DNA of 64,000 bases from Escherichia coli (GTDB lineage Bacteria > Pseudomonadota > Gammaproteobacteria > Enterobacterales > Enterobacteriaceae), in assembly GCF_036507355.1 (NCBI RefSeq), contig NZ_AP027877.1; one strand, given 5' to 3'. Shown in pieces: positions 1-62,618 of this stretch. The number at the start of each line of letters is the position of its first letter. Position 1 is the first letter of the stretch. The notes under the pieces are model-generated. The model ran no database searches, was not told the DNA's origin, and was given only the letters and a program-made list of their open reading frames with translations. The translations under genes and the position numbers were made by a program.

Positions 1-1199
1 ACCGTAAAATCGGTAAACAGCTCGACCTGTACCATATGCAGGAAGAAGCGCCGGGTATGGTATTCTGGCACAACGACGGCTGGACCATCTTCCGTGAACT
101 GGAAGTGTTTGTTCGTTCTAAACTGAAAGAGTACCAGTATCAGGAAGTTAAAGGTCCGTTCATGATGGACCGTGTCCTGTGGGAAAAAACCGGTCACTGG
201 GACAACTACAAAGATGCGATGTTCACCACCTCTTCTGAGAACCGTGAGTATTGCATTAAGCCAATGAACTGTCCGGGTCACGTGCAGATTTTCAACCAGG
301 GGCTGAAGTCTTATCGCGACCTGCCGCTGCGTATGGCCGAGTTTGGTAGCTGCCACCGTAACGAGCCGTCAGGTTCGCTGCATGGCCTGATGCGTGTGCG
401 TGGTTTTACCCAGGATGACGCACATATCTTCTGTACCGAAGAACAAATTCGCGATGAAGTTAACGGATGTATCCGTTTAGTCTATGATATGTACAGCACT
501 TTTGGCTTCGAGAAGATCGTCGTCAAACTCTCCACTCGTCCTGAAAAACGTATTGGCAGCGACGAAATGTGGGATCGTGCTGAGGCGGACCTGGCGGTTG
601 CGCTGGAAGAAAACAACATCCCGTTTGAATATCAACTGGGTGAAGGCGCTTTCTACGGTCCGAAAATTGAATTTACCCTGTATGACTGCCTCGATCGTGC
701 ATGGCAGTGCGGTACAGTACAGCTGGACTTCTCCTTGCCGTCTCGTCTGAGCGCCTCCTATGTGGGCGAAGACAACGAGCGTAAGGTACCGGTAATGATT
801 CACCGCGCAATTCTGGGGTCGATGGAACGTTTCATCGGTATCCTGACCGAAGAATTCGCTGGTTTCTTCCCGACCTGGCTTGCGCCAGTTCAGGTTGTTA
901 TCATGAATATTACCGATTCACAGTCTGAATACGTTAACGAATTGACGCAAAAACTATCAAATGCGGGCATTCGTGTTAAAGCAGACTTGAGAAATGAGAA
1001 GATTGGCTTTAAAATCCGCGAGCACACTTTGCGTCGCGTCCCATATATGCTGGTCTGTGGTGATAAAGAGGTGGAATCAGGCAAAGTTGCCGTTCGCACC
1101 CGCCGTGGTAAAGACCTGGGAAGCATGGACGTAAATGAAGTGATCGAGAAGCTGCAACAAGAGATTCGCAGCCGCAGTCTTAAACAATTGGAGGAATAA
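1..1199 (+). CDS. thrS: Threonyl-tRNA synthetase, C-terminal part (5' end lies outside the window)
   Basis: Open frame from base 3 with no start in window; translation ([23 protein letters not shown]...) recognised as ThrS. Confidence 0.95.
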
Positions 1200-59280: not shown

Positions 59281-60492
59281 TCAGTGTGATTCGCTATGAG
59301 CGACTTCGGCATTGCCATGATTCTGGCAGCCAACTTCTTCACAACGTTGCATCATGTAACCCAGCGCGACCAGCACTACTGTTGATAACATCACGCTGGT
59401 GGTGGTGAGCAATGGCGTGCTGATACTGATCAGCCAGGAAACTACCAGACTTGCGAGGAAGCACAGACCCAGTTGTAGAGTGTTCTGCAACGCTGCGGCG
59501 CGACCAGTTGCGTGTGGGAAGGGACGCAGCGCCTGGGCGACAACAATAGGGTAGATCGCGCCATTGGCAATCGCCATCACACAGAATGGGATCAGGATTT
59601 CGACCAGCGACACATGGCTAATGAAGCCCGCAGCCCAGGTCGCAATGACGCTGACAGCAAACAGCACCAGCAACCACGGTAATAACTGCTTGCCTTGCCA
59701 TTTCTGCAGCGCGGCGCGACAGCCATAACCACCAATCAGAAACGCGATAGTTTGCGGGACATAACTTAAACCAATTACTGCCGGGCTGTAGCCCATTTCA
59801 CTAAGGATGAACGGTGAACCGGTCAGCCATGCAAAAAAACTGGCTGAACAGGCTGCGTATATCAGCACGTTGCCGCGATAGGTTTTAGAACGTAGCAGGT
59901 CGGTAAAGGTCAGACCATCCTGACTATTGTTACGGGCCTTCGTCGTGGGTTTGAGCCAGAAAATAGGCAGAATCAGCACCACGGTAATGGCAAAAAGGGT
60001 GGCGAAAATCGCCTGCCAGGAAAAATGGACCAGCAGCCAGCTTCCTAACAGAGGAGCCAGGGCCGGAGATAGACCCACCAGCGGCATGATGGTCGCAAAA
60101 ATTCGGTTAACTTTCTGTGAAGGATAATAATCCGTCACTAACGCTTGCCAGATAACCGCCGCGGCGCAGACACCCACAGCCTGTACAAAACGCAATACCA
60201 GCAGCATAGCGGCGTTTTCTACCCACAGCATCCCCAGACTACCTAACGCAAAAATTGTCAGGCCGATTAATAATACCGGTTTACGACCATAACGGTCGGA
60301 GAGCGGCCCCCACAGAAGTTGGGCTGCGGCAAAACCGGCAAGGAACAGACTAAGGCTGGCACTGACAGCAGACGCAGGCGTTTGCAGGTCGGCCTGTATG
60401 GCGGCGAAAGCAGGCAGATACATATCGGTTGCCAGAAAACCGAGTACGCTCAAACCCGCCAGCCAGACTAAAAATCTTTTCCCAGGTTGCAT
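59281..60492 (-). CDS. ydhC: MFS transporter (purine nucleoside transporter PunC/YdhC)
   Basis: 403-aa 12-TM-like MFS protein. Confidence 0.88.
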
Positions 60493-60604
60493 GTATATTC
60501 TCTAAATCTCTCAATTAAACACCGCCGCAAAGTGTAGGGAGTGAAATTAGTGTTGTGAAACGGTAATATTTGATGACTGGTTTCAAAAATTTTGCAGGCA
60601 GACT

Positions 60605-61537
60605 ATGTGGTCAGAATATTCACTCGAAGTTGTTGATGCGGTAGCGCGTAATGGTAGTTTTAGCGCTGCAGCCCAGGAGTTGCATCGCGTTCCTTCTGCG
60701 GTCAGCTATACCGTGCGTCAGCTGGAAGAGTGGCTGGCGGTGCCGCTCTTTGAACGACGGCACCGTGATGTGGAGCTGACCGCTGCCGGAGCGTGGTTTC
60801 TCAAAGAAGGGCGCTCTGTTGTCAAAAAAATGCAGATCACCCGCCAGCAATGTCAGCAGATAGCGAACGGCTGGCGTGGTCAGTTAGCTATCGCAGTGGA
60901 TAATATTGTCAGGCCAGAACGTACACGGCAGATGATCGTTGATTTTTATCGCCATTTTGATGATGTCGAACTTCTTGTCTTTCAGGAAGTGTTCAACGGT
61001 GTCTGGGATGCGCTTTCCGACGGGCGCGTGGAACTGGCGATTGGCGCAACACGCGCGATTCCGGTAGGCGGTCGTTATGCCTTCCGGGATATGGGGATGC
61101 TAAGCTGGAGTTGCGTTGTTGCCAGTCACCACCCGCTGGCGTTGATGGATGGCCCGTTCAGCGATGATACGTTGCGCAACTGGCCGTCGTTGGTGCGCGA
61201 AGACACCTCGCGAACGCTACCTAAACGTATTACCTGGTTGCTGGATAACCAAAAAAGAGTTGTCGTGCCTGACTGGGAATCATCGGCAACCTGTATCTCG
61301 GCAGGATTATGCATAGGGATGGTGCCAACACATTTCGCCAAACCGTGGCTTAATGAGGGGAAGTGGGTAGCACTTGAATTGGAAAACCCCTTCCCGGATT
61401 CGGCATGTTGTCTGACATGGCAGCAAAATGATATGTCGCCTGCGTTAACCTGGCTGCTTGAGTATCTCGGCGATAGTGAGACGCTGAATAAGGAGTGGCT
61501 GCGGGAGCCGGAAGAGACTCCCGCAACGGCTGATTAA
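60605..61537 (+). CDS. ydhB: LysR-family transcriptional regulator (PunR/YdhB)
   Basis: 310 aa with N-terminal LysR HTH; divergent from ydhC. Confidence 0.88.
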
Positions 61538-62559
61538 CGACGATAGTCGCGGAACGGGCCGTCAGCCACGGAGCGGCGTTCAATCAAACGCGGATGCACT
61601 TCAATGGACTGCGGTTCTTCACGTTTGTTGACGATACGATCCAACAGCATGTTGAACGCTGTTTCACCCAGCGAATCTTTTGGCTGATGGATCGTGGTCA
61701 GCGCCGGCGTAAAATAGCGGGCGTTGCGCACGTTATCATAACCAATCAGCGAAACATCCTGCGGGACGCGCAGGCCCATTTCATCAGCAGCACAAAGTGC
61801 GCCCATTGCCATGATATCGCCACCACAGAAAACGGCAGTAGGGCGATGCGGCTGCGACAGGATTTGCTGCATGGCGCGATAACCGGATTCAGGTTCAAAG
61901 TCACCCTGCACAATCCAGCTTTCCGGCACCTTGATCATTGCTTCTTCCATCGCCTTCATAAAACCGGCAAGGCGGCCTGCGCCAGTGTTACGTTCCAGCG
62001 GGCCGGGGATAACGCCGATTTCGCGATGGCCGCGTTCTATCAGATAACGCCCGGCCATGTAGCCGCCTTCGAACGCGTTATCAATGACCGCATCGGTGAA
62101 GTCAGCTTTTGCTTCACCCCAGTCCATCACCACCATTGGGATATGGCGATACTCTTCCAGCATCGCCAGCAACGGCTCTGGGTACTCAGAACACATTACC
62201 AGCAGACCATCGACGCGTTTTTGCGCCATCATCGACAGATAAGCCCGCTGTTTCTCAAGATTGTTCCACGCATTGCCCAGAATCAGGGTGTAACCTTTCT
62301 GGAAGCAATTTTTTTCAACTGCTTCAATGATCTCGGCAAAATAGGCCGCTTCGCTGCTGGTCGCCAGCAAACCGATAGACTTGGTGTGGTTAACCTTCAG
62401 GCTACGCGCCACCGCGCTAGGGGAGTAGTGTAATTCTTTAATCGCTGCCCACACGGCGTTGCGCGTTTCTTCAGCGACGAAACGTGTTTTGTTGATCACG
62501 TGTGACACAGTTGTAGTGGAAACGTTTGCTCGTTTCGCTACATCTTTTATTGTTGCCAT
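61534..62559 (-). CDS. purR: Purine repressor (LacI family)
   Basis: 341-aa [47 protein letters not shown]... Confidence 0.97.
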
Positions 62560-62602: not shown

Positions 62603-62618
62603 AAGGTAAACGTTTGCC
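62603..62618 (-). promoter_or_regulatory. PurR box (autoregulatory operator) in the purR 5' region
   Basis: Minus strand GGCAAACGTTTACCTT against PurR consensus ANGCAAACGTTTNCNT. Confidence 0.65.

Follow-up and report, generated by a model that had tools for sequence, protein, structure and literature searches.

An inverted repeat between punC and punR of Escherichia coli is probably a by-product of the known PunR site and an adjacent conserved promoter block

The window (the whole stretch of E. coli DNA that was analysed, 64,000 nucleotides) carries two divergent genes, a purine nucleoside transporter and its LysR-type activator:

59281-60492, minus strand: punC (ydhC), MFS purine nucleoside transporter, 403 aa
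60605-61537, plus strand: punR (ydhB), LysR-type activator, 310 aa

PunR scored 527.9 bits against its NCBIfam equivalog model (NF008294; cutoff 345) and PunC 601.9 bits against NF008270 (cutoff 430); the Pfam domains found were MFS_1 in PunC, and HTH_1 (PF00126) together with LysR_substrate (PF03466) in PunR. Of 5426 complete E. coli genomes, 5423 carry the names punR and punC in RefSeq. Measured from the punC ATG (60492, minus strand) to the punR ATG (60605), the intergenic gap comprises 112 bp (60493-60604), which is the length that the sequence-only reading had given, and it is identical to the spacer of E. coli K-12 MG1655. The gene order punC, punR, purR was the same in all eight more distant Enterobacterales examined. 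At their 3′ ends, punR (ending at 61537) and purR (ending at 61534) are convergent and overlap by 4 bp (61534-61537), so there is no space for a separate terminator between them; this overlap is absent in some other genera (Pantoea, Cronobacter, Shimwellia). Within the ydhC ORF (59281-60492), genomic SELEX gave a PdhR peak, which a gel shift corroborated (PMC7660256); only 8 of 14 positions fit the proposed box.

The biology of this locus is already known, as regulator, target, effector and main operator were all published in 2021 (Rodionova et al, 2021, Commun Biol 4:991; PMC8376909). In that work, YdhB, the activator of ydhC, was renamed PunR, and ydhC was renamed punC. Phylogenetic footprinting predicted a 23-bp palindromic PunR motif (consensus TsttwTCAAwAwwwTTGaaGGCA), and a ChIP-exo peak demonstrated occupancy of the DNA between punC and punR in vivo. 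PunR bound a 36-bp oligonucleotide with a Kd of 27 nM (fluorescence polarisation), solely with adenine present; binding was also measured by mobility shift, for which the oligonucleotide was gactggtttcaaaaattttgcaggcaga. Deletion of punR lowered the punC transcript (log2 -2.55 by RNA-seq), and induction of punC by adenine needs Nac besides PunR (PMC8376909). The protein used in vitro was refolded and of about 40% purity, and the fragments assayed were all devoid of the conserved block termed A below (PMC8376909). The published motif is present in the spacer, and within it lies a shorter dyad:

60578-60600, no strand: PunR-binding motif TGGTTTCAAAAATTTTGCAGGCA (motif of PMC8376909 mapped to the window; conserved across the alignment)
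60582-60596, no strand: 15-bp dyad core TTCAAAAATTTTGCA (6 of 7 pairs, centre 60589)

Between positions 60530 and 60604, this is the sole 15-bp dyad with at least five of seven pairs.

From the letters alone, the sequence-only reading had singled out a different element, TGAAAC-N18-GTTTCA between ydhC and ydhB, and had proposed it as the site at which the regulator binds its divergent target. The repeat is there exactly as described, its arms being separated by an 18-nt spacer (60562-60579):

60556-60561, no strand: left arm TGAAAC (invariant in all sequences compared; in the punR promoter spacer, -20 to -15; 4-bp overlap with the predicted punC -35)
60580-60585, no strand: right arm GTTTCA (part of the published PunR operator, in its left half; punR leader positions +5 to +10)

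It can be lengthened to 9 nt at 89% complementarity (one mismatch), pairing 60553-60561 with 60580-60588. A perfect 6-bp inverted repeat with a spacer of 0-30 nt occurred, however, in 51% of 5000 dinucleotide-preserving shuffles of the 112-bp spacer, and the same class was present in 246 of the 571 (43%) real 112-bp tiles of the window; the count of "expected 0.00" that accompanied the repeat holds for the exact pattern only, which had been picked post hoc. The repeat is real, yet no commoner than chance alone gives, and because half of the shuffles contain one of its class, it carries little meaning by itself. Another inverted repeat (10 nt, 90%), TGTATATTCT / AGAATATTCA at 60492-60501 and 60613-60622, flanks both start codons; its right copy is coding sequence (SEYS), its left copy is not kept in other genera, and it is probably due to chance.

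The two arms relate differently to the published operator. The 23-bp motif includes the right arm and excludes the left arm and most of the N18 spacer. The genomic part of the published binding oligonucleotide corresponds to window positions 60575-60602, again with the right arm inside and the left arm outside; as PunR binds this fragment, the left arm is dispensable for binding in vitro. One dimer of a LysR-type regulator reads a dyad of about 15 bp, and the centres of the two arms, being 24 bp apart, are therefore too distant for a single dimer. What had been proposed thus divides: that YdhB (PunR) binds the spacer and activates the divergent ydhC agrees with the published work, but TGAAAC-N18-GTTTCA is not the operator, as the motif overlaps its right arm only, the bound oligonucleotide lacks its left arm, and its six pairs are complete in just 8 of 89 sequences compared.

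For both genes, promoter elements could be placed in the spacer. A sigma-70 scan returned one promoter-like site, TTCACA-17-TACACT, on the punC strand, and the elements of punR were placed relative to a mapped transcription start:

60531-60536, minus strand: predicted punC -10, TACACT (sigma-70 scan, 17-bp spacer; marked in PMC8376909 Supplementary Fig. 2)
60554-60559, minus strand: predicted punC -35, TTCACA (sigma-70 scan; same marking in PMC8376909 Supplementary Fig. 2)
60541-60546, plus strand: candidate punR -35, GTGAAA (4 of 6 matches to TTGACA, 17-bp spacer; placed from the start site)
60564-60569, plus strand: punR -10, TAATAT (ends 7 nt before the mapped start; invariant in Enterobacteriaceae, TAAAAT in Mangrovibacter)
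60576, plus strand: punR transcription start (A) (SMRT-Cappable-seq, PMC6131387 Supplementary Data 2)

The hexamer TACACT is invariant in Enterobacteriaceae, and in Yersinia as well as in a distant metagenomic punR-punC pair (L090, see below) TAGAAT is found at the same position, which supports the prediction of this element as the punC -10. The predicted promoter would place the punC start near 60524, which is 65 bp from the dyad at 60582-60596; the SMRT-Cappable-seq table (PMC6131387 Supplementary Data 2) contains no start for punC. For punR (b1659), the same table gives NC_000913.3 position 1739827 on the reverse strand. This position maps to window 60576 and results in a punR 5′ UTR of 29 nt. 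As a control for the mapping, the start of cfa from that table was located likewise and fell on window 59203, 213 nt upstream of the cfa ATG, which agrees with the position of cfa P1. TAATAT is invariant and stops exactly 7 nt short of the mapped punR start, which identifies it as the punR -10. For the -35, GTGAAA (60541-60546) is a plausible candidate; the tetranucleotide AGTG (60540-60543) shows no variation.

The mapped punR start refines the picture of the control region. The whole PunR operator falls inside the punR leader, from +3 to +25, and this overlap with the regulator's own leader, which by position is the geometry of LysR-type autoregulation, suggests that PunR represses punR; the point is absent from the PunR paper (PMC8376909). 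The predicted punC -35 and the punR -10, in turn, stand back to back inside one invariant block. A sigma-E promoter in which the arms of the repeat would serve as -35 (GAAAC) and -10 (TCAAA) was judged by eye and rejected, as the ~19 nt between them would make too long a spacer, and as TAATAT accounts for the start at 60576; sigma-24 predictions of RegulonDB are cited in the PunR paper (PMC8376909).

Conservation was assessed on the regions upstream of punR from 80 species-level genomes of Enterobacteriaceae (80 distinct sequences, aligned), and on an outgroup of eight more distant Enterobacterales (Serratia, Yersinia, Erwinia, Pantoea, Mangrovibacter, Cedecea, Cronobacter and Shimwellia). In the Enterobacteriaceae alignment, two conserved blocks, A and B, flank a linker of variable sequence and fixed length; block B is the published PunR site and has the pattern TG..TTCAAAwwwTTTTGyAGGCA. 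The other two elements are as follows:

60554-60572, no strand: block A, TGTGAAACG[S]TAATATTTG (19 bp; holds the left arm, the predicted punC -35 and the punR -10)
60573-60577, no strand: linker between block A and the PunR operator (5 bp, variable sequence, fixed length; holds the punR start)

The repeat itself does not behave as a unit in this comparison. The outer bases of the right arm vary freely (G at 60580 is present in 19% and T at 60581 in 35% of the sequences), while the left-arm bases opposite them (60561 and 60560) are invariant, that is, there is no covariation. In Klebsiella-type sequences, 60580-60581 read CA. Across 89 Enterobacterales, the arms paired at 6/6 positions in 8 sequences, at 5/6 in 27, at 4/6 in 49 and at 3/6 in 5. 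The inner 4 bp of the arms (TGAA, and TTCA at 60582-60585) are kept in 83 of the 89, at a strictly fixed distance, and block A and the operator keep the same separation in 87 of 89. In Serratia and Yersinia, CTGTTA replaces the right arm, which abolishes the repeat and leaves block A intact. Two metagenomic punR-punC pairs (L090 and L091), whose PunR proteins are only 42% and 38% identical, respectively, and both above the NCBIfam PunR cutoff, retain TGAAACGnTAA plus the dyad TCAAAtttTTTG at the same spacing; their arms pair at just 3/6 and 4/6 positions. Judged from these alignments, selection acts on each block and on the distance between them, not on the repeat as such. The punC-punR spacer of Yersinia pseudotuberculosis (locus L082, about 1270-1370) is about 290 bp long, versus 112 bp in the window, and the extra DNA contains several units resembling GGTTATTGTT, located between punC's start and its promoter.

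Block A surpasses every other element of the locus in conservation, the published PunR operator included, in Enterobacterales and beyond. In the 80 sequences of Enterobacteriaceae it is invariant save for 60563, which is free, and 60562, which differs in one sequence; the eight more distant Enterobacterales add one further change, TAAAAT for TAATAT in Mangrovibacter. Its core, TGAAACGnTAA, persists beside punC down to the PunR identities of 42% and 38% mentioned above. Seven of its invariant positions lie outside both promoter hexamers, and the non-consensus positions of the hexamers are invariant too. As this invariance goes beyond the hexamers, we infer that block A carries contacts of a regulator, most simply of a second PunR dimer, so that block A would probably also hold a second PunR site, the activation site. 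A candidate 15-bp stretch for it is 60560-60574, the centre of which lies at about -43 and is separated from that of the dyad by 22 bp, about two helical turns; its right half, ATTTG, resembles TTTTG of the recognition site. More generally, we give about even chances to block A being a second sequence-specific regulator contact, be it an activation site of PunR switched by adenine or the docking site of a further factor, which would account for the dependence on Nac. If so, PunR would have a bipartite operator of about 50 bp in all, not a 23-bp site. A search for the PunR activation site, or for whatever underlies the Nac dependence, would therefore best begin with block A.

A PunR-family gene at a locus without punC (L089; 442.5 bits to the PunR model, above the NCBIfam cutoff) retains a dyad resembling block B, TTGAAAATAATTGATGGCCA, just upstream of its start codon (1440-1500), and has no block A; this single case fits a role of block A as regulator contact. 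The neighbours at L089 are a tRNA gene and Bax1-I/DsrE genes. The representative P0123 (45% identity) lies at a locus devoid of punC. Upstream of add, the other adenine-induced gene, block A was absent. Just upstream of add, the malY-add spacer of E. coli K-12 (locus L092, 836-865) contains a perfect 11-bp inverted repeat, ATTGCGCAACG-N8-CGTTGCGCAAT, of a sequence unrelated to the PunR site; this repeat may be an operator or the terminator of malY. Elsewhere in the window, a near-copy of block A, TGTGAATCGGTAATATT (904-922, minus strand), has one mismatch over its first 17 nt (15 of 16 specified positions); since it falls in coding sequence of thrS (MNITDS), it was set aside as most probably a chance match.

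Could the arms nevertheless be true PunR half-sites, read by different dimers of one tetramer via the core TGAA...TTCA? A LysR-type tetramer normally covers 50-60 bp, within which both arms would fit, and the invariance of TGAA, the retention of TTCA in 83 of 89 sequences and the block spacing fixed in 87 of 89 are what such an arrangement would lead one to expect. Yet the two outer pairs show no covariation, TTCA has become GTTA in Serratia and Yersinia with TGAAAC unchanged, the metagenomic pairs reach only 3/6 and 4/6, the 24 bp between the arm centres put them about 100 degrees apart on the helix, and the oligonucleotide without the left arm is bound at 27 nM. Half-site function of the arms is thus regarded as unlikely. 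RNA pairing has next to nothing in its favour: pairing of the arms is possible (plus strand -4.7 kcal/mol, minus strand -2.7), but the folding z-scores of -0.45 and -1.12 are not better than those of shuffles, and no compensatory changes occur among the sequences. Moreover, the left arm lies upstream of 60576, where the punR transcript begins, and transcription of punC leads away from the two arms. As neither transcript holds both arms and folding is as in shuffles, a hairpin in a 5′ leader is excluded, and to the repeat as RNA hairpin or DNA cruciform taken together we assign a negligible probability.

A further possibility concerns block A with the left arm, which may be the operator of another regulator, either a LacI-family protein (Cra- or PurR-like, with the half-site TGAAAC followed by G) or Nac. 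Block A does match, with one mismatch (60554-60567), the Cra consensus, RSTGAAWCSNTHHW. However, this pattern gave 18 matches in the window versus 14.2 expected, which is uninformative, and a Cra/FruR operator at block A was therefore rejected as a match at chance level. A search for the PurR palindrome CGCAAACGTTTGCG (14-16 bp, up to three mismatches) found no match in the spacer (60493-60604), block A included; the same search found two sites adjoining purR (62517-62530 and 62605-62618), which, assumed from their position to be purR's own operators, serve as a positive control. Nor was a Nac-type site (consensus ATA-N9-TAT) found with up to one mismatch upstream of the punC promoter, or in the promoter region. 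In favour of a further regulator, the conservation of block A exceeds the need of promoter hexamers alone, and induction of punC by adenine requires Nac too (PMC8376909). On the other hand, block A accompanies punR-punC pairs down to 38% PunR identity, which a locus-specific factor fits better, and the PunR-family gene without a neighbouring punC (L089) is without block A. Another protein as the reader of block A is accordingly held to be rather improbable.

The explanation that accounts best for the repeat, and to which we attach considerable confidence, is that it is a by-product of two adjacent functional elements, the known PunR site and block A; it would not be the operator itself, and PunR would act from the dyad. 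The right arm would be the 5′ edge of the PunR recognition site, the core of which is the dyad at 60582-60596, and the left arm would be part of block A, where it overlaps the predicted punC -35 on the minus strand and lies next to the punR -10 on the plus strand. Together with adenine, PunR binds the dyad, the centre of which is at +14 of the mapped punR start and ~65 bp upstream of the punC start as predicted, and from there activates punC; by position, it should at the same time repress its own promoter. As with other LysR-type regulators, block A probably offers an activation site (around 60560-60574, adjoining the punC -35) to a second PunR dimer. In this scheme, binding of PunR to 60575-60602, its occupancy of the spacer in vivo, the fall of punC upon punR deletion and the punR start come from experiments; the punC start, binding as a tetramer, the activation site and autorepression are deduced.

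The closest known system is the PunR operator itself, described for the same locus and the same regulator: the right arm of the repeat lies inside its 23-bp motif, and the left arm and, for most of its length, the 18-bp spacer are excluded from it. The PunR paper describes no activation site, Nac site or punR start, and labels the left-arm stretch as -35 and nothing else (PMC8376909). The modest added value of the present analysis is a finer map of this known control region. In classical LysR-type divergent promoters (BenM/CatM, CbnR, AtzR, OxyR), a recognition site is located near -65 and an activation site near -35. The punC-punR region resembles them in that punR is divergent from its target, in that the dyad overlaps the punR leader and, given the predicted punC start, would be centred ~65 bp upstream of it, and in that block A forms a second conserved block 22 bp (about two turns) nearer to the punC promoter. 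Unlike the textbook T-N11-A, the dyad reads C-N9-G / T-N13-A, and no literal T-N11-A is found within it. The oligonucleotide with the PunR recognition site was bound only with adenine, whereas LysR-type recognition sites are usually bound without inducer. Finally, conservation is higher in the promoter-proximal block A than in the recognition site, whereas LysR-type promoters usually show the opposite.
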